Source: an uncultured Gammaproteobacteria bacterium
GTDB taxonomy: Bacteria > Patescibacteriota > Patescibacteriia > UBA11705
DNA: 61,202 nt
Assembly: GCA_964592195.1 (NCBI GenBank)
Contig: CAZQEI010000006.1
Location: forward strand, 1 to 61,202
Reading direction: 5' to 3'
The position numbers and the translations under genes are program-made. The notes beneath the pieces are model-generated. The model saw nothing but the letters and a program-made list of their open reading frames with translations. It ran no database searches and was not told the DNA's origin. Of the stretch, positions 22,888 through 30,684 are shown piece after piece. Every line of letters begins with the position of its first letter. Position 1 is the first letter of the stretch.

Positions 22888-22913
22888 CAAAAAATCATGC
22901 GCTATGGCATGAT
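22888..22913 (-). terminator. Rho-independent terminator of the island
   Basis: Minus strand: ATCATGC-CATAGC-GCATGAT then TTTTTT. Near-identical to the terminator at 23549-23574. Confidence 0.75.
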
Positions 22914-22918
22914 TAACT

Positions 22919-23488
22919 CTAATTTGTTGATTTTCGACAATGTTCAATAGCGGCTTCGCTTTCGGGTGTTACTCCCGGTGGCGGTGTGGTCGGAGTGTCA
23001 AACTGTCTTGGAGTGTTTAGAATACTATCGAGGTTTTTAGCCGCGGCCAAATTTGCCTCGTCATCACCCCAAAGATGAGCGTTGAGTTCTTTCGAACGAG
23101 TAATAGTATCTGCACTAAATGGAGTAACACAGAAACCTGGACCTGAACCTTTAGAAATTACCGGAGACGGACAATTGTATGAACGAGGTGTCAGTTTGTC
23201 AATCGCTAAACAGATTACTACACGATCTTTGAAAATCTTTCCCATTGACCGGATCCAGCGGTAAAGAATATACAAAGAGATCAAAGCACCTACTACGATA
23301 AAAATATCTTTGAAATGTGCGTATTCGGGATCTTTATAAAATACATATCCGACCGCAAGAACAAGAAGAAAATAGGAAATATCGCAAAGTGTGACAATAA
23401 GCATACGAGTGGAATTCCATTTTTTGTCTTTTTGGAGTTCTTCGAGTTTTTCAGTGTTCAAGTTGCCTCCTGTTTGGTTGTTTGTCAA
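22919..23488 (-). CDS. 2-TM membrane protein with ~100-aa C-terminal soluble domain (start uncertain)
   Basis: TM1 MLIVTLCDISYFLLVLAVGYVFY and TM2 IFIVVGALISLYILYRWI. AGGAGG precedes an internal TTG. The C-terminal domain carries 4 Cys and a Pro-rich tail. Confidence 0.55.
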   Translation of the reverse strand: MTNNQTGGNLNTEKLEELQKDKKWNSTRMLIVTLCDISYFLLVLAVGYVFYKDPEYAHFKDIFIVVGALISLYILYRWIRSMGKIFKDRVVICLAIDKLTPRSYNCPSPVISKGSGPGFCVTPFSADTITRSKELNAHLWGDDEANLAAAKNLDSILNTPRQFDTPTTPPPGVTPESEAAIEHCRKSTN

Positions 23489-23548: not shown

Positions 23549-23574
23549 TAAAAAATCATGCGCAATGGCATGAT
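23549..23574 (-). terminator. Rho-independent terminator
   Basis: Minus strand: ATCATGC-CATTGC-GCATGAT then TTTTTT. Confidence 0.75.
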
Positions 23575-23582
23575 TCTAGTGA

Positions 23583-23915
23583 TTAACTTGGAGGTTGAAC
23601 GTCTCTATTTTCTTTAAATACTGTTACTCCTGCACCGGTAATAAATTCCTCAACGATCGAACTTTCTTCCGCGCTCAATTTGTTTATTTCTTTTTCTTTG
23701 CGAGAAAAGATGAGACCAGTCAGAATCATAATCAGCATGTTAGCGATGATTATTAAAATTCTATTGTGCATTTCAATTGTTTTATATTCAGCTATGTAGA
23801 TAATGAAATAAAACGCAAATAACATTATAAATAGCGAAATATAGAAATAACAATTTATAATACGGGTTTTTGATTGATGAATTTGGAAAAGTCGGTTGAA
23901 CTTAGCTTGCTCCAT
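23583..23915 (-). CDS. Small 2-TM protein (110 aa)
   Basis: Charged N-terminus, TM1 CYFYISLFIMLFAFYFIIYIA, TM2 ILIIIANMLIMILTGLIF, acidic C-tail. It overlaps the upstream gene by 14 nt. Confidence 0.55.
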   Translation of the reverse strand: MEQAKFNRLFQIHQSKTRIINCYFYISLFIMLFAFYFIIYIAEYKTIEMHNRILIIIANMLIMILTGLIFSRKEKEINKLSAEESSIVEEFITGAGVTVFKENRDVQPPS

Positions 23916-24228
23916 GCTTTACCTCCAGGCTGCGAATTTGTGAAACTATTACCGTGGTAAAGAGGAAACCATTTTCCCGTAATTCGGCAACAATTCTTTC
24001 GTATTTAATTCGTGTTGTGAAATAATGTACGATGGAAGTGGTTATTGCTAATAGACAGATTATTGACTTCGATAAATATAAGTAGTTTGGTAAAACAGTA
24101 TATTGATTAATCATCTCTGAAATGATACAGAAAGTAGCCATCACGGCAATACAAATGAAAATATTAAAACGATTTTTCTTGTGAATTATCTGATTTAATC
24201 TTTCATATCTATGATGATCAGATCTCAT
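23902..24228 (-). CDS. Small 2-TM protein (108 aa)
   Basis: AGGAGG RBS 21 nt after the PurA-like stop. TM1 FNIFICIAVMATFCIISEMI, TM2 SIICLLAITTSIVHYF. Confidence 0.55.
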   Translation of the reverse strand: MRSDHHRYERLNQIIHKKNRFNIFICIAVMATFCIISEMINQYTVLPNYLYLSKSIICLLAITTSIVHYFTTRIKYERIVAELRENGFLFTTVIVSQIRSLEVKHGAS

Positions 24229-24249: not shown

Positions 24250-25650
24250 TCATCTAATAGTAAACTTACCTTCTCTCGTCTCGTTCACTGAAATCAATTC
24301 GATCTTGGTTCTAAGCAACTTTTCCACATGACGAACAAACGCTTGCGCGTTCTTGGGCAAATCTGAGAAATCTTTGCAAGCTCGAATATTATCAATCCAA
24401 CCTGGAAGGTAATGGCAAATGGGATGACATTTTTCCAAAACTCTAGTAACTTTATCTCGGTCAATCGTTCTCGGCTGAATATCTGTGATGGTGAATGTTC
24501 CATTCCCGTTCTTTGAATAAACAAAATTGTCTACCAAATCATCTTCATCGCCTTCATATTCATAAGCATTGCAAACGGGCAATTGAAGCAGGCCAGAAAG
24601 CTGATCCAAGCAAGTCATGGCTAGACCGTCTACTCCGTCATTGGCTTCAATGCCGTAACGAAGCAGGACGAGATCCAGTGGACCAACTCGGAATGGACCT
24701 TGCCAATCATTACGCAAATTAAAATGATCATAATAGAATGAATCATACCGAATATCTTCTGTTGGCAACGGACCAGAACCATGGCGATGAGCATAGGCGC
24801 GGAATACGCCAAGCTTGCGAGGTTTTTCCGGTAGGGGATGAAGTTCAAATGCTTGATGGTAAGTAACTTTTGCTTGTGTGATGTGAGGGGTAAAGCCAAA
24901 ATGACGATCAAGCAAAGCGCCTTGTGATCCTTCGTAAAGCAAAGGTCGTCCAGCTTGAATTTGCGACATCAAGTAATTGTTTCCCAAATCAAAATGAATA
25001 CCCATGTCTTCCAAAAATGCTTTATAGAAATCAGCCAGCTTGTGAATGGTGTATTGATACCGGAAATGCTCGTAAATTTTGTGAGCCGCTTCATTGTCAG
25101 GATTAGCCGCCAATATAGCTTTGGCTTCTTCATGCTTTAGACTTCCAATAGTTCTCAGTTTCTCGAGTAGGTAATTGTGATCAATGCAATCCAGAATAGA
25201 AAGCGAAAGATTCTTTTCATGATCGCGGATCGTTTCACCGACACCTAGGCCACAGGAACCATATTTTCGATTACGAATGGCAATTCTCATTCTAGCTACC
25301 ATAACATGAAAAGGTGTAATAATTGTGACATTAGGAGAAATTACCATACGATGAATTAACTTTGGTTCAGCTATTTGATCACTCAAATATGAATTTTCAA
25401 CCAGCAGTTCCATTGGACACAAATAAAAATGACGAGAAATATAAGTGTTTACATCACGGTGGAAAGTTGCGGCGCCGAATTGCTGGAATTTGTGATGTCC
25501 CATTCTGGCTACAACGTTGTGGACGCATTGAACTGCTCCGCTGAACTTTACATCAACAGCGTTCGGATATTCTTCAGCCAAATAGTCAATAATTGTGCCT
25601 TTACCACCATCACCAAAACCAATATCGAGAATAATGGTGTCGTTGGGCAT
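24250..25650 (-). CDS. Divergent adenylosuccinate synthetase (PurA)-like enzyme
   Basis: Collinear with PurA. GFGDGGKGT matches GDEGKGK, CVHNVV matches NAGHTV, LYEGSQGALLD matches FEGAQGTLLD, RAYAHRHGSGPLPTE matches KAYSTRVGAGPFPTE, and YLPGW matches MPGW. The TTGRRRR loop and the TKLD Lys are not conserved. Confidence 0.8.
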   Translation of the reverse strand: MPNDTIILDIGFGDGGKGTIIDYLAEEYPNAVDVKFSGAVQCVHNVVARMGHHKFQQFGAATFHRDVNTYISRHFYLCPMELLVENSYLSDQIAEPKLIHRMVISPNVTIITPFHVMVARMRIAIRNRKYGSCGLGVGETIRDHEKNLSLSILDCIDHNYLLEKLRTIGSLKHEEAKAILAANPDNEAAHKIYEHFRYQYTIHKLADFYKAFLEDMGIHFDLGNNYLMSQIQAGRPLLYEGSQGALLDRHFGFTPHITQAKVTYHQAFELHPLPEKPRKLGVFRAYAHRHGSGPLPTEDIRYDSFYYDHFNLRNDWQGPFRVGPLDLVLLRYGIEANDGVDGLAMTCLDQLSGLLQLPVCNAYEYEGDEDDLVDNFVYSKNGNGTFTITDIQPRTIDRDKVTRVLEKCHPICHYLPGWIDNIRACKDFSDLPKNAQAFVRHVEKLLRTKIELISVNETREGKFTIR

Positions 25651-25701: not shown

Positions 25702-25726
25702 GAAAAAAGCTTGGGATTCCCAAGCT
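25702..25726 (-). terminator. Hairpin terminator/attenuator between the vWA and PurA-like genes
   Basis: Minus strand: AGCTTGGG-AAT-CCCAAGCT then TTTTTT. Confidence 0.6.
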
Positions 25727-25743: not shown

Positions 25744-26919
25744 TTACGATTTGGCTTCGAAGCGACCGCGACTGTCACGTTGTAGACGCTTTCGAACTTC
25801 GATATCCACGACATCGGTGCTCAGAACGAAGTTGGGATCAACCTTCTGACCATCGACCCAAATTTCCCGATTGAGGAACGAGATGTTGTAACGCTGAAGG
25901 ACTTCTCCAACCGTTTCACCCAGTTCATACTTGATACCTTGCTCAGTGAAGCTGGGCGCCGTCAGATTGGCATCAGCTTTCACGGAGTCGCTAGTCTTCG
26001 GCAAAGAAGGGGGTACGAAATTTTTGAAAATCTGACGAATCATTTCACGTCGAGCCGGAGTTTGTTCACGCTTGCGCATATCTTCGAGATAGCCATCCAA
26101 AGTGCGAACACCATTACCAAGTGCCAGAATGCCAAGCAACATATCGACAATCGCTTGATCTTCGGGAACAATGAAGACATTGTTATCACCGAGGACTCGT
26201 CGCCACATTTCCAGAACTTGACCATCATCAATGCTATTCATCTGAGTATAGGGACGGTGAATCAGGTAGACATTGTTGTTGAATTTCTTACGAAGATCTT
26301 CGAAAACCTTGGTAGCATTCGTAGAGCTGTGTTCACCACCAAAGACTTTGGTCAAGAAATTCCGAGTCAGACATTCATTTTCACGGAAGCCTTCATCAGA
26401 GACGAACACGCAATAAGGATTCTTGACTTCAGTCATGTCAACAAGGTAGGCGAACAAGTAGGCTACGACTTCAGGCGATTCCACACCCTGACCGCCACCA
26501 CCATGTTCATCCATGAAAATGCGCTTCAGTTGACCATCCAGACCTTTAACGACGACAGGATCACAAATTTGGATAGGCGATTGATCGCCGTTGAAAAAAT
26601 CATTTCCAATGAAATCTTGGAACATACCTACATGAATCTGATGATCGGGAAAATATCCTTGAGTTTGAGTTTCCCGTGAATAGTTCGGCATACGATCGAG
26701 CATGGCTTTGGGTGCCGTATCCATGGAACCAGTAATGTCCAATCCAAGAGCAAGGAAGTTCTTAGCTGTCACCTTGAACTTTCTACCATAAGGAAGAATA
26801 TCATTGGTTTGAACCTTTTTTTCGAAGAACTTCTCAGAAAAGTCAGTCGTTCCACGATGAGTTCTTTGTGACGATGAAGTCGTATCTCTATCGTAATGAC
26901 AACCACCCGGTCCGCCCAT
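25744..26919 (-). CDS. vWA-domain protein with C-terminal beta-grasp (ThiS/MoaD/ubiquitin-like)-looking segment
   Basis: AAGGAGGG RBS. MIDAS-type strand LALGLDITGSMD (DxTGS), later CVFVSDEG. The C-terminus IWVDGQKVDPNFVLSTDVVDIEV resembles the ThiS/MoaD pattern. Confidence 0.7.
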   Translation of the reverse strand: MGGPGGCHYDRDTTSSSQRTHRGTTDFSEKFFEKKVQTNDILPYGRKFKVTAKNFLALGLDITGSMDTAPKAMLDRMPNYSRETQTQGYFPDHQIHVGMFQDFIGNDFFNGDQSPIQICDPVVVKGLDGQLKRIFMDEHGGGGQGVESPEVVAYLFAYLVDMTEVKNPYCVFVSDEGFRENECLTRNFLTKVFGGEHSSTNATKVFEDLRKKFNNNVYLIHRPYTQMNSIDDGQVLEMWRRVLGDNNVFIVPEDQAIVDMLLGILALGNGVRTLDGYLEDMRKREQTPARREMIRQIFKNFVPPSLPKTSDSVKADANLTAPSFTEQGIKYELGETVGEVLQRYNISFLNREIWVDGQKVDPNFVLSTDVVDIEVRKRLQRDSRGRFEAKS

Positions 26920-27189: not shown

Positions 27190-27468
27190 TTACTTTGTCT
27201 TTCGTGCTCTGACGATTTCGTCCTTGATATCAACCATCTTCAGCAAGCTGGCAACAATGTTTTTGACGCAATAGCTGACCATGAGAATACAGATGCTACA
27301 GGTGGAGACTTTGATAAAGGTTGAGTACTTCACACTTTGAAAAACATTATATCCAATTAACACGGAAAAACAGGAAACAATTGTGACTGCCAAGAAAGCG
27401 GTGAGAAATTCAGTAAAGTGATAATTGAATTCATTCTGGAGTTGCAGTTCAGCCTGCTTGTTGCTCAT
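27190..27468 (-). CDS. Small 2-TM protein (92 aa)
   Basis: TM1 FLTAFLAVTIVSCFSVLIGY, TM2 VSTCSICILMVSYCV, basic C-tail. It overlaps the upstream gene by 20 nt. Confidence 0.55.
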   Translation of the reverse strand: MSNKQAELQLQNEFNYHFTEFLTAFLAVTIVSCFSVLIGYNVFQSVKYSTFIKVSTCSICILMVSYCVKNIVASLLKMVDIKDEIVRARKTK

Positions 27469-27781
27469 TTCCCTCTCTCCTTTGTGGGTTGCGTGACAGG
27501 AATGTGCGATTTACAATTTTTGAAGAAGCTAATTTCATTTCATTGTCCAATTCTTTAAGCGATTGAGTATCGTTGTAGATCAACCAAACACTGAGTGCTG
27601 TTATTACGATGAAACAAAAACTTATACCAAAGACTAATATTTCATTCGAATAAATTCCGACACCGGCTAATCCAATTGATAACAATAGAGTTAAAACGAA
27701 GAAAAGGTATTCTCTTTTTAGTGAAGACTGCAATCTTATATATTCCTTTTTCAAGTCTTTAAGTTGTTCCAATTGACCCAT
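27449..27781 (-). CDS. Small 2-TM protein (110 aa)
   Basis: AAGGAG RBS. Charged N-terminal helix, TM1 YLFFVLTLLLSIGLAGVGIY, TM2 ILVFGISFCFIVITALSVWLIY. Confidence 0.55.
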   Translation of the reverse strand: MGQLEQLKDLKKEYIRLQSSLKREYLFFVLTLLLSIGLAGVGIYSNEILVFGISFCFIVITALSVWLIYNDTQSLKELDNEMKLASSKIVNRTFLSRNPQRREGNEQQAG

Positions 27782-27861: not shown

Positions 27862-27945
27862 TAGTTTTGTAATGATTTTGGTTGTAATTATGTATGATAT
27901 ATGCTAGTATATGTTTATAATTATAATTGTAATTTTATCTATTTT

Positions 27946-30684
27946 ATGTCAATTTTTACCAAAATTTTTGGAGATCCCAACGATAAAGTCATTCAAAGTA
28001 TCCGCGTTATTGTTGATCAAGTCAATGCTTTAGAACCGACAATTCAAGCGTTATCTGATGAAGAATTGAAGGCTAAAACTGAATATTTTAAAAGTTTGTT
28101 GTCACAGGGAAAGACTTTGGACGATATATTACCGGAAGTTTTTGCTGTTGTGCGTGAAGCTTCGAAGCGAACCACAGGTTTACGCCATTTTGATGTACAG
28201 TTAATCGGTGGTGTGGTTTTACATAAAGGTGAAATCGCAGAAATGAAAACCGGTGAAGGTAAAACTTTAGTAGGTACTTTGGCTACCTATTTAAATGCTT
28301 TAACTGGAAGAGGTGTGCATGTGGTGACTGTGAATGATTATTTGTCCAGTCGTGATGCCACTTGGATGGGGCAAGTTTACAATTTTCTTGGTTTAACGGT
28401 TGGTGTCATTCAACATGAGTCTTCATTTATTTATGATGAATCATGGGCTGGTAATGATGTGGTTGATCAAACACGAGATGAAGAAGCCAGCTTCAAGGTG
28501 GAAAAATCATTTTTGAAACCAGTAACTAGAAAAGAAGCTTATGCTTGCGATATTACTTATGGAACAAATAATGAATTTGGTTTTGATTTTTTAAGAGATA
28601 ACATGGTCGGGAAACTGGAAGAAAAAGTGCAACGACCATTTTACTATGCCATAGTCGATGAAGTCGATTCAATTTTAATCGATGAAGCTCGAACACCGTT
28701 AATTATTTCCGCTCCAGCTGAAGAATCTGCAGCCATGTATGATCAGTTTGCTCATTTAGTTCCCAAACTTGAAGTCAATATTGATTATAATGTGGATGAG
28801 AAAATGAAAGCTACTACTTTAACCGAAGCGGGTTTGAATAAAATCGAAAAATTACTCGGCATGGGAAATATTTACACTGAAGGTGGTATTGAAATGGTGC
28901 ATCATTTGGAACAAGCTTTGAAAGCTCATGCTTTGTTTAAAAAAGATAAAGATTATGTGGTTAAAGATGGAGAAATAATGATTATCGATGAATTCACCGG
29001 TCGCATGATGCCAGGACGTCGTTACTCCGAAGGTTTACATCAAGCTTTGGAGGCCAAGGAAGGCGTTGAGGTTAAAAAAGAAAGTCGCACTTTGGCGACC
29101 ATTACTTTTCAAAACTATTTTCGTTTATATGAAAAGTTGTCCGGTATGACTGGTACGGCTTTAACTGAAGCAGAAGAATTTAACAAAATTTATAATCTTG
29201 ATGTTACCTTAATTCCAACCAACAAAGAATTAAAACGTAAAGATTTAACTGATCGTGTTTATTCCACTGAATTAGGTAAATTCAAAGCCGCAGCCAGAGA
29301 AATTAAAGAATTACATGCCAAAGGCCAACCGGTTTTGGTTGGTACCATATCCATTGAAAAAAGTGAATTGTTGAGTCAATTACTGGAAAAAGAAGGTGTA
29401 CCTCATCAAGTGTTAAATGCCAAACATCATGAAAAGGAAGCGCAAATTGTCGCCCAGGCTGGTCGTGTTGGGGCTGTTACCGTGGCCACGAATATGGCAT
29501 GCAGTGGTGTGGATATGATTCGCGGTGGCGCACCATTTAACGAAGAAGAATACAAGAAAGTGGTGAACGCTGGTGGGTTGTTTGTTCTTGGCACAGAAAG
29601 ACATGAATCTCGTCGTATTGATAATCAGTTGCGAGGTCGTAGCGGTCGTCAGGGTGATCCGGGTAATTCTCAATTCTATGTGTCCATGGAAGATGATTTA
29701 ATGCGCATCTTTGGTTCTGATCGTGTGAAAAGTATTATGCAAACTTTTGGCATGCCAGAAGATATGCCGATTGAAAATGGCATTATTACTCGGTCCATTG
29801 AAACTTCCCAACGCAAAGTGGAGGAATATTATTTCGATGTGCGTAAGCATTTAGTGGATTACGACGACATCATGAATAAACAACGCGAAGCTATTTACAA
29901 ACGCCGCGATGAAATTTTAGCCGCCGGTAGTGAAGATACTGCCAATCTTCGAGGCAAGATTATGGAAATGATTGAGGATGAATTGGAGCAAGTGGTTTCT
30001 TTCCATACCGCAGAAGCGAAAAATGGAGATTGGGATTTGAAAGAAATTGTGGAAGTGGCTGGAACGATTTTCCCCGTGCCAGGTAATTTGTTGGAAGAGT
30101 TGAATAAATTGTATGAAGAAAGTAAGCATGTGCATGAATCGGAAATCCGCACGATAATTTTTGATAAGCTAATGGCGTTGGCAAAACAAGCATACGAAAA
30201 TTTACATGAAAGAATAAAATCTCAAGCTCCAGATAAAGATTACTTACCAATGATTGAAAATGAAATTTTGTTACGCAGTATTGATAATCTTTGGGTAGAA
30301 CATTTGGACTCCATGAATACTTTGAGAACTGGTATTGGTCTCCAAGGTTATGCTCAACGTGATCCGTTAGTTGAATACAAACGTGAAGCACGACAAATGT
30401 ATATTGAGTTATTGAACTTGATTCAAAAACAAGTGGTATATTCAATTTACAAAGTGGGTTTGAATGTGAAACAGCCGACCGTTACTGCCCCGGAAAATTT
30501 ATCGTATTCAGATACGAAATCCTCCGAGGCTTTTAACCCGACTAAAGATCCATATCAAACTGCTAAACATTCGGAAACAAAATCTGCGAATAAAAATTAC
30601 ACTTCTGCAGATCATAAAGTTGGTCGCAATGATCCATGTCCGTGTGGGAGCGGAAAAAAGTATAAGAAGTGCCATGGTGGGTAA
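27946..30684 (+). CDS. secA: Preprotein translocase ATPase SecA
   Basis: [10 protein letters not shown] Walker [29 protein letters not shown], and a C-terminal zinc motif [17 protein letters not shown] 27946 gives the canonical MSIFTKIFG start. Confidence 0.97.

Follow-up and report, generated by a model that had tools for sequence, protein, structure and literature searches.

Bacterial adenylosuccinate synthetase, PurA (EC 6.3.4.4; E. coli structures 1CG3 and 1ADE), acts on inosine monophosphate (IMP), L-aspartate and guanosine triphosphate (GTP). The roles of its residues given here follow the structural literature on the E. coli enzyme. We take D13, K16, H41 and Q224 to serve lactam deprotonation and transfer of the gamma-phosphate, and D333 to be the guanine-specifying Asp. 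N38, T128/T129, R143' and R303 presumably contact the 5'-phosphate and ribose of IMP, and the carboxylates of L-aspartate are presumably held by the loop GATTGRRRR (T300, T301, R303, R305) together with R131. To our knowledge, PurA has so far had one well-studied neofunctionalised offshoot, PurZ. PurZ is of short archaeal-type origin, has Ser in place of the catalytic Asp and an intact aspartate site, and is accompanied by DatZ, MazZ and DpoZ (PMC12884076). Here we describe a PurA-like gene and the gene that precedes it in a DNA stretch of 61,202 nucleotides (contig CAZQEI010000006.1 of assembly GCA_964592195.1), which we call the window throughout.

Three other kinds of system are relevant for comparison. 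Proteins with a von Willebrand factor A (vWA) domain are encoded with a Ser/Thr kinase and a PP2C phosphatase in the TerY-P triad, and with AAA ATPases in the MoxR, CbbQ and NorQ pairs. The amidoligase domain of CTP synthase and other SIMIBI-class enzymes phosphorylate a lactam oxygen with a nucleoside triphosphate, after which a small nitrogen nucleophile attacks. NrtR is an ADP-ribose-responsive regulator of the synthesis and salvage of nicotinamide adenine dinucleotide (NAD).

The two genes of interest in the window are:

24250-25650, minus strand: PurA-like putative GTP-dependent ligase; intact open reading frame (ORF) of 466 amino acids (aa); Pfam PF00709; substrate loops remodelled
25744-26919, minus strand: vWA partner of predicted MIDAS (metal ion-dependent adhesion site) type, 391 aa; phrog_2971 (E 9e-14); AlphaFold2 model with Foldseek matches

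We propose, with a probability of about 0.6, that the first gene encodes a catalytically competent PurA-derived enzyme which uses a nucleophile other than aspartate and belongs to a vWA-coupled accessory module related to NAD or ADP-ribose. It would be a second offshoot of PurA, and a much broader one. The partner family by itself amounts to about 2,000 clusters at 50% identity, and the pair is carried by Myxococcota, Patescibacteria, Actinobacteria of soil and over 140 sequenced mycobacteriophages. In the searchable literature there was no account of the PurA-like family, of its pairing with a vWA protein or of its NrtR/NAD context.

The PurA-like protein and its family

The PurA-like ORF starts with ATG and has an AAGGAG ribosome-binding site 8 nt upstream. 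The Pfam adenylosuccinate synthetase family covers the protein from end to end (residues 7-460, E 1.1e-65). We obtained an AlphaFold2 model of it, with the 120 homologues as input (predicted local distance difference test score, pLDDT, 95.7). By this model the protein has the full-length fold of bacterial-type PurA, since it superposed on ligand-bound E. coli PurA 1cg3 (Foldseek template modelling (TM) score 0.83/0.89, 24% identity) and the scores with PurZ and PurZ0 were far lower (about 0.55-0.59). The protein fell below the cutoffs of all five NCBIfam purA equivalog models, with 181.6 bits against 402 for the best one (NF002223), 155.7 against 395.55 for TIGR00184, and 120.9 against 445, 92.1 against 700 and 77.8 against 368 for the remaining three.

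Motifs were placed by HMMER alignments to solved PurAs and by a MAFFT alignment of 122 sequences (120 homologues taken from databases, one from a phage, and E. coli PurA itself). Residues are numbered as in mature E. coli PurA unless window numbering is stated, and family counts refer to the 120 homologues. The window protein kept the P-loop (G12-D13-x-G15-K16-G17), H41, E221, Q224, D229, T239 and D333. Its catalytic core D14, K17, H44 and Q243 (window numbering) corresponds to D13, K16, H41 and Q224 of E. coli. The replacements were N38 to Q, T128/T129 to S/C, R131 to L, P135 to E, R143 to N, V273 to H, T300 to W, T301 to Q, R305 to F, K331 to C and T415-G416-P417 to V-N-E, and R303 was deleted. 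Within the set of IMP contacts only T239 was kept, and the aspartate loop gave way to N-D-W-Q-G-P-F-R. Four Arg and two Thr were lost in this way, and conserved Cys, His, Trp/Tyr, Gln and Phe stood there instead. By these alignments, the GTP P-loop, the guanine-specifying Asp and the catalytic residues are retained, and the binders of IMP and aspartate are lost.

The initial annotation had read most of this by eye, and the alignments agreed with it. All the motifs that it listed as retained were found in the window protein (its own numbering): GDGGKG at residues 13-18 (GDEGKG in E. coli), EGSQGALLD at 240-248 (EGAQGTLLD), GSGPLPTE at 291-298 (GAGPFPTE), PGW as LPGW at about residue 415, and CVHNVV within QCVHNVV at 41-47, which aligns with E. 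coli NAGHTLV (quoted as NAGHTV, a trivial slip). The loops listed as changed were also located, namely SCGLGVGE (132-139) in place of TTGRGIGP, NLRNDWQGPFR (311-321) in place of GATTGRRRR and TCLD (346-349) in place of TKLD; the aspartate and IMP binders are truly absent and not misaligned. SVNE (454-457), set against STGP, is present as well, but it is not a family trait, as the family has S-x-G-P. The same holds for V43, where the family has G or A.

In the family, D13, K16 and H41 were unchanged in 120/120, and Q224 and D333 in 118 each. The replacements were similarly constant: N38 to Q, V273 to H and the loss of R303 in all 120, T300 to W and T301 to Q in 118 each, R305 to F in 110 and T129 to C in 109. 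Non-basic residues occupied R131 (L, V or M) and R143 (G, D or E; N in the window protein). The canonical string NAGH occurred in none of the homologues and TTGRG in one; RHGxGP was found in 118. The nearest database proteins, 35-39% identical to the window protein, had the same substitutions, and these were also conserved in slow-evolving Actinobacteria and in phages. Chance falls far short of explaining this pattern, as 120 homologues that are only about 35% identical share fixed substitutions. The family signature is Q38, G-[ST]-C-G, R-H-G-x-G-P and [WY]-Q-G-x-F-R, with D13, K16 and H41 kept; actinobacterial members have Y-Q-G-x-F-R where others have W-Q-G-x-F-R. The window protein fits it with Q41, GSCG (131-134), RHGSGP (289-294) and WQGPFR (316-321) in its own numbering.

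The relatives are labelled 'adenylosuccinate synthetase' in source annotations, and we considered whether the protein could be a genuine enzyme of this kind (IMP, Asp and GTP), serving purine salvage and made odd by the fast evolution of Patescibacteria. The full fold and the catalytic residues are retained, and no second PurA homologue was found in the 61-kb window. Nevertheless, we find this very improbable. The scores are less than half of every purA equivalog cutoff, R131, R143, R303, R305, T129, T300 and T301 are all replaced, in slow-evolving Actinobacteria and phages too, and the tight linkage to a vWA gene described below is unlike that of housekeeping purA. Furthermore, the two kinds of gene coexist. 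A Propionibacteriaceae contig (L019) has a canonical purA, with NAGH, TTGRG and RRR motifs, 7 kb from a family member. This canonical PurA scored 378 bits (46% identity) with E. coli PurA and 68-76 bits with its neighbour. By these scores the PurA-like proteins are a paralogous family and not divergent purA orthologues, since L019 holds both and the canonical copy is far closer to E. coli PurA.

In comparison with bacterial PurA, the family shares the full-length fold, GDxGKG, D13/K16/H41/Q224, EG(A/S)QGxLLD, GxGPxPTE and Asp333, and its profile is closest to the bacterial long form (253 bits for E. coli/bacterial PurA, 140 for archaeal PurA, 54 for PurZ and 33 for PurZ0). It differs in the replaced IMP binders and aspartate loop, in the vWA neighbour and in its coexistence with true purA. 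The NCBIfam misses, the alignment, the structure model and the conserved paralogous family agree with the proposal of the initial annotation that this is a scaffold for PurA chemistry with changed substrate sites, not a housekeeping PurA. Its further suggestion, a ligase for a different nucleotide or amine, was right as to the missing aspartate and IMP binders; the different substrate itself is something that we infer. Counting such a gene as purA would falsify metabolic reconstructions of minimal Patescibacteria genomes.

The PurA-like gene and the vWA gene were found as a pair in Falkowbacteria, Saccharibacteria, Myxococcales, one Clostridia metagenome-assembled genome (MAG) and Herbidospora, in dozens of genomes of Nocardia, Rhodococcus, Gordonia, Mycobacterium, Amycolatopsis, Lentzea and Saccharothrix, and in 140+ cluster C (Bixzunavirus) mycobacteriophages, e.g. 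as gp254 and gp256 of LRRHood. The Bixzunavirus members, annotated 'PurA-like adenylosuccinate synthetase', belong to the same unnamed family; examples are the cluster C homologues of Mycobacterium phage I3 (L169, NC_067270.1, 33167-34495) and LRRHood (L007, 4980-6308). RefSeq, for the phage I3 homologue, and PHROG use a name of the PurZ type, '2-aminooxy adenylosuccinate synthetase'. For the cluster C homologue this is probably a misannotation, because the catalytic Asp is kept (GDAGKG) and the aspartate loop is absent.

That name raises the question of a PurZ/PurZ0-type enzyme, or another enzyme of non-canonical DNA purines (2-aminoadenine, or 7-deazapurine as for ToyG), in phage-type DNA modification. 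The window protein has phrog_1211, which carries the same name, as its best PHROG match (E 1.9e-55), and more than 140 mycobacteriophages carry a member of the family. PurZ and PurZ0 (succino-amino-deoxyadenylate synthase) are likewise PurA-superfamily paralogues with altered specificity that occur in phages. We consider this explanation barely credible, because the catalytic Asp is kept: the Asp to Ser hallmark (PMC12884076) is absent and D stands in 120/120. The NCBIfam PurZ model NF038379 gave 16.9 bits against a cutoff of 300, and the family profile and the TM scores quoted above also place PurZ and PurZ0 far behind PurA. PurZ and ToyG require aspartate, for which the site is gone here. 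Among the annotated neighbours there were no DatZ-, MazZ- or DpoZ-like genes (the window has the vWA gene and small membrane ORFs, the phages have the kinase and the vWA gene). The family differs from PurZ also in being long-form (466 aa) and in its vWA and kinase company. The parallel to PurZ drawn in the initial annotation therefore holds for a paralogue with an altered substrate site; in PurZ, however, the aspartate site is kept and Asp13 is Ser, the opposite of what we found. The 7-deazapurine (ToyG-like) variant was rejected, with no supporting neighbours and with the aspartate site for such chemistry absent.

The vWA partner and accessory genes

The vWA gene lies 93 bp upstream of the PurA-like gene on the same strand. 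The initial annotation, which gave no strand, missed it, as well as the kinase, NrtR and NAD associations of the relatives. Pfam and PADLOC gave no match for the partner. By its AlphaFold2 model (pLDDT 86.8) it is a MIDAS-type vWA protein, because the model matches integrin beta-I and von Willebrand factor A1 domains (Foldseek, E ~1e-6). It has the motifs D-I-T-G-S-M, GGGGQGVES and SDEG and a conserved N-terminus, MGG..HYDRD; the family motifs are D-x-T-G-S-M, GGGG-x-x-E-S and (S/G)-D-E-G. The partner scored 327 bits against the hidden Markov model of its family, which at 50% identity comprised 2,047 representatives at E<=1e-3 and 761 at E<=1e-30. A BFVD fold search returned generic viral vWA proteins only, and an IMG/VR scan with the partner alignment yielded no confirmed relatives. 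The 103-sequence alignment was too diverse and was not used for locus scanning.

The first 10-13 residues of the partner (26881-26919 in the window) are nearly invariant in bacteria, phage and eukaryotes. Patescibacteria, Myxococcota and eukaryotes have MGG-x-x-Y-D-R-D-V, Actinobacteria have MG-x-G-x-W-D-D, and the phage form is MGSGAWDS. The model shows disorder at residues 2-4. Such near-invariance, with a tip predicted to be disordered, is unusual for an N-terminus. The other end of the window partner carries an extension:

~25747-25932, minus strand: C-terminal extension of the vWA partner, residues ~330-391; window-specific; predicted small alpha/beta domain, pLDDT about 80

By eye the extension (…GETVGEVLQRYNI…EIWVDGQKV…VLSTDVVDIEV) looks like a ThiS/MoaD-type beta-grasp domain. 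Pfam and PDB sequence searches gave no support for this, and we left it unnamed. A subgroup of the vWA family (P0209, P0226, P0202 and P0237; 465-505 aa) has an insertion of ~150 residues inside the vWA domain, with the motif …V(R/S)LIWNN.NDLDLHV.APSGEEIYYGHK.S.CGGELDVDMN…PVENIYWP…, which we matched to no named domain.

We assessed the linkage of the two genes from both sides. A scan that started from the partner, with one genome per species, found 311 loci, of which 80 were fetched; the PurA-like gene was directly downstream on the same strand in 78 of them, and one of the two exceptions was a contig end. A scan that started from the enzyme covered 80 metagenome loci, and the 54 with >=1.5 kb upstream were counted; the vWA partner was present in 50/54. 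The PurA-like gene is near-obligately linked to an upstream vWA gene (about 93-98% of loci). The genes that flank the pair differ between genera, which fits a mobile cassette, and we infer that the two genes form the core of an accessory module that has spread horizontally.

Further genes are frequent, not universal, in the family. In 46/54 metagenome loci the gene before the vWA gene encodes a Ser/Thr kinase that has a J domain at its N-terminus, and this kinase was also found in Actinobacteria, in the Clostridia MAG, in phages of cluster C and in an uncultured phage of 485 kb. A protein of ~310 aa that matches the pyruvate-kinase barrel is encoded between the vWA and PurA-like genes in 12/54 (Patescibacteria, Myxococcota and others). 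The Patescibacteria and Myxococcota versions have a classical AAA ATPase and an ORF of ~230 aa ('X230') in place of the kinase. Some vWA-family proteins carry a fused U-box or RanBP-type zinc ribbon, and one transcript of a marine eukaryote transcriptome joins the vWA-like domain to NUDIX. In the 61-kb window there was none of the accessory genes (J-domain kinase, AAA, pyruvate-kinase-like barrel, NrtR). The window, L001 and L004 are Falkowbacteria-like genomes with the module at the same site, between secA and hpf/MFS. The module is more complete in L004, where AAA, vWA, pyruvate-kinase-like and PurA-like genes are present, and two-gene versions occur in L001 and several metagenome loci. The window holds a reduced, two-gene version of the module.

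A vWA gene also occurred with no PurA-like gene beside it. In the 485-kb phage (L008, LR745208.1, 6755-9718) the J-domain kinase, vWA and pyruvate-kinase-like genes stand in a row, with no PurA-like gene within 8 kb. In a Planctomycetota MAG (L049, JAHBXY010000163.1, 9890-13259) the vWA gene is followed by a glutamine-dependent NadE, and another amidoligase may there substitute for the PurA-like enzyme.

As in the vWA-kinase and vWA-AAA systems, a MIDAS-type vWA protein is encoded here with a Ser/Thr kinase or an AAA ATPase. By this analogy, the vWA protein might be an adaptor or a regulated component for a client enzyme. The present module differs from those systems in that the kinase has an N-terminal J domain, no PP2C was seen, the AAA ATPase is a classical PF00004 member and not MoxR, and the client is PurA-like. 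PADLOC gave no specific match for the enzyme, the vWA partner or the accessory proteins, only generic kinase and AAA similarity. A defence-system reading was tried and rejected, with no supporting neighbours.

The main rival to our proposal is a protein-directed role within a kinase-vWA system. The enzyme would ligate or modify a protein, e.g. the partner N-terminus MGG-x-Y/W-D-R/D-D, or would be a GTP-sensing switch in signalling or conflict, with no free metabolite involved. The partner N-terminus, near-invariant across phyla and phage and disordered at residues 2-4 in the model, would suit such a target, and so would a site that has lost anion-binding Arg and gained aromatics, if the substrate were a peptide. 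The J-domain kinase, the classical AAA ATPase and the U-box and RanBP-Zn fusions are partners of a proteostasis or signalling kind, and the kinase resembles those of defence systems at the generic domain level. On the other hand, D13 and Q224, which in PurA handle the purine lactam, are invariant. There was no enzyme-vWA fusion among the proteins found and no PADLOC model for either of them, and the neighbourhoods with NrtR, NadE, NadA and PncA favour small-molecule nucleotide metabolism. On balance, we consider a protein-directed role unlikely.

NAD genes and the proposed reaction

NrtR-like genes adjoin 76/166 loci. The eight that were checked are bona fide NUDIX + NrtR_WHD (winged-helix) proteins; in Nocardia-type cassettes the NrtR-like genes immediately downstream encode divergent homologues. 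In 8/166 loci, of both the kinase and the AAA architectures, a neighbouring gene encodes NadE (alone or with NMNAT), NadA, a DAO oxidase or a PncA-like isochorismatase. In Saccharibacteria (L009) the module lies inside an NAD operon, where one strand carries NrtR, a DAO-type oxidase, NadA, an ORF of ~230 aa, vWA, AAA, vWA, the PurA-like gene, a NadE-NMNAT fusion, the pyruvate-kinase-like protein and the PncA-like isochorismatase. Because the module recurs under NrtR or among NAD biosynthesis genes, it probably serves NAD/ADP-ribose-related nucleotide metabolism rather than AMP synthesis. Its association with NrtR, NadE/NMNAT, NadA and PncA-like genes recalls NrtR-controlled NAD regulons, and like the published phage pathways of NAD+ reconstitution, NARP1-3, it occurs in bacteria as well as phages. 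None of NARP1 (Adps + Namat), NARP2 (Nampt + Nmnat) and NARP3 (PnuC + NadR-like) has a PurA-like or vWA protein.

In the PurA-derived enzyme that we propose, the two-step mechanism of PurA would be kept. An acceptor resembling a lactam or a nucleotide would first be phosphorylated by GTP on one of its oxygens, as suggested by the invariance of D13, H41 and Q224, and a nitrogen nucleophile would then displace the phosphate. The acceptor would be held differently from IMP. The nucleophile would be small or neutral (e.g. ammonia, an aromatic or a peptide amine) and not aspartate, because four Arg are lost and the aromatic W/Y-Q-x-F loop is gained. The vWA partner would be an adaptor or regulator of the enzyme, to which fuller versions of the module would add the J-domain Ser/Thr kinase, or the AAA ATPase and the pyruvate-kinase-like barrel. 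Chemistry of this kind would resemble that of the CTP synthase amidoligase by analogy only; the family has no fused glutaminase, and a NadE with a CN-hydrolase domain adjoins some loci.

A more specific version is improbable, namely a GTP-driven, vWA-assisted ligase of NAD/ADP-ribose metabolism which phosphorylates an oxygen of an NAD-related nucleotide, so that a neutral nitrogen nucleophile displaces the phosphate. The aromatic W/Y-Q-G-x-F-R loop would hold the nucleophile, for which nicotinamide and ammonia are candidates; the acceptor might be ADP-ribose or a hypoxanthine or deamido dinucleotide. If true, this would be a new route of NAD+ rebuilding or repair in Actinobacteria, Patescibacteria and large mycobacteriophages, the fourth beside NARP1-3. 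More broadly, the vWA coupling, the J-domain kinase and the NrtR/NadE context suggest undiscovered nucleotide chemistry, possibly at an NAD-centred interface of phage-host conflict. A direct test is within reach, as M. smegmatis with its Bxz1-like phages, Rhodococcus and Nocardia can be cultivated.

Several points weigh against the proposed PurA-derived enzyme of NAD-related metabolism. Its substrate and nucleophile are deduced solely from the residues kept and lost. Outside Actinobacteria the NAD link is found in a minority of lineages (7 NrtR and 3 NadE among the 80 metagenome loci), and neither the 61-kb window nor its Falkowbacteria and Myxococcales relatives have a kinase, NrtR or NAD gene. 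The fusion of vWA to a U-box and its place beside AAA ATPases hint at a role directed at protein rather than metabolite. The window protein departs from the family at 10/82 highly conserved columns, against a family median of 3; one is a Glu conserved at 99% that is Ile123 here, and the S-x-G-P guanine loop, which is SVNE, is also affected. Few members deviate as strongly, and its function may have drifted. Finally, a terminator-like element stands between the two genes of the pair:

25708-25726, minus strand: terminator-like hairpin within the 93 bp that separate the partner and PurA-like genes (AGCTTGGGAATCCCAAGCT, then a T-run); match to a consensus pattern

This hairpin suggests attenuated or separate transcription in this genome. 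Together with the high number of deviating columns and the syntenic Falkowbacteria locus L004, which still has AAA, vWA, pyruvate-kinase-like and PurA-like genes, the split of the pair would fit a degenerating remnant that has lost its kinase, AAA and pyruvate-kinase-like genes and encodes an enzyme without a selected function. We hold this to be quite improbable, as the frame of 466 codons is intact and has a good ribosome-binding site, no catalytic residue is lost, 72/82 conserved columns are unchanged, the AlphaFold2 model is very confident, and two-gene versions exist elsewhere (L001 and several metagenome loci).

Other features around the pair

Small ORFs flank the pair on both sides:

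22919-23488, minus strand: fifth small membrane-hairpin ORF, further downstream of the PurA-like gene
23583-23915 and 23902-24228, minus strand: two overlapping small ORFs of 110 and 108 aa, both predicted to form a two-helix membrane hairpin
27190-27468 and 27449-27781, minus strand: two small ORFs of 92 and 110 aa with two transmembrane helices each, upstream of the vWA partner gene

In each of the five ORFs (92-189 aa) a two-helix membrane hairpin lies between a short charged N-terminus and a tail, and those around the pair lie as overlapping couples. BLAST among them revealed no mutual similarity, and there were only weak sub-threshold matches to Csx23 and CARF-TM models. We did not count these ORFs as module parts, because no homologues were seen beside the module in other loci. 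The couple at 23583-24228 follows the PurA-like gene after 21 bp and ends at a terminator-like hairpin (23577-23552). It may be co-transcribed with the PurA-like gene, and its membership in the module is uncertain. Membership is equally uncertain for the couple at 27190-27781, which is followed by a terminator-like hairpin at 27182-27167.

The rest of the window is ordinary chromosome, with genes for DnaB, SHMT, MurC, MurB, SecA, SecDF, PBP2, the CCA-adding enzyme and an AddA-like helicase-nuclease; tRNA and Rfam scans of the window found nothing. The terminator-like hairpins at 23552-23577 and 22893-22914 (minus strand), each downstream of one of two successive small ORFs, are almost identical in sequence (…AATCATGCCAT[T/A]GCGCATGATT…), which points to a terminator element that is repeated or to a local duplication. 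In the SecA ORF (27901-30684, plus strand) the mechanically assigned start gives an odd leader of 15 residues. The true start is probably the next Met, which would lengthen the divergent promoter region between secA and the small-ORF operon.

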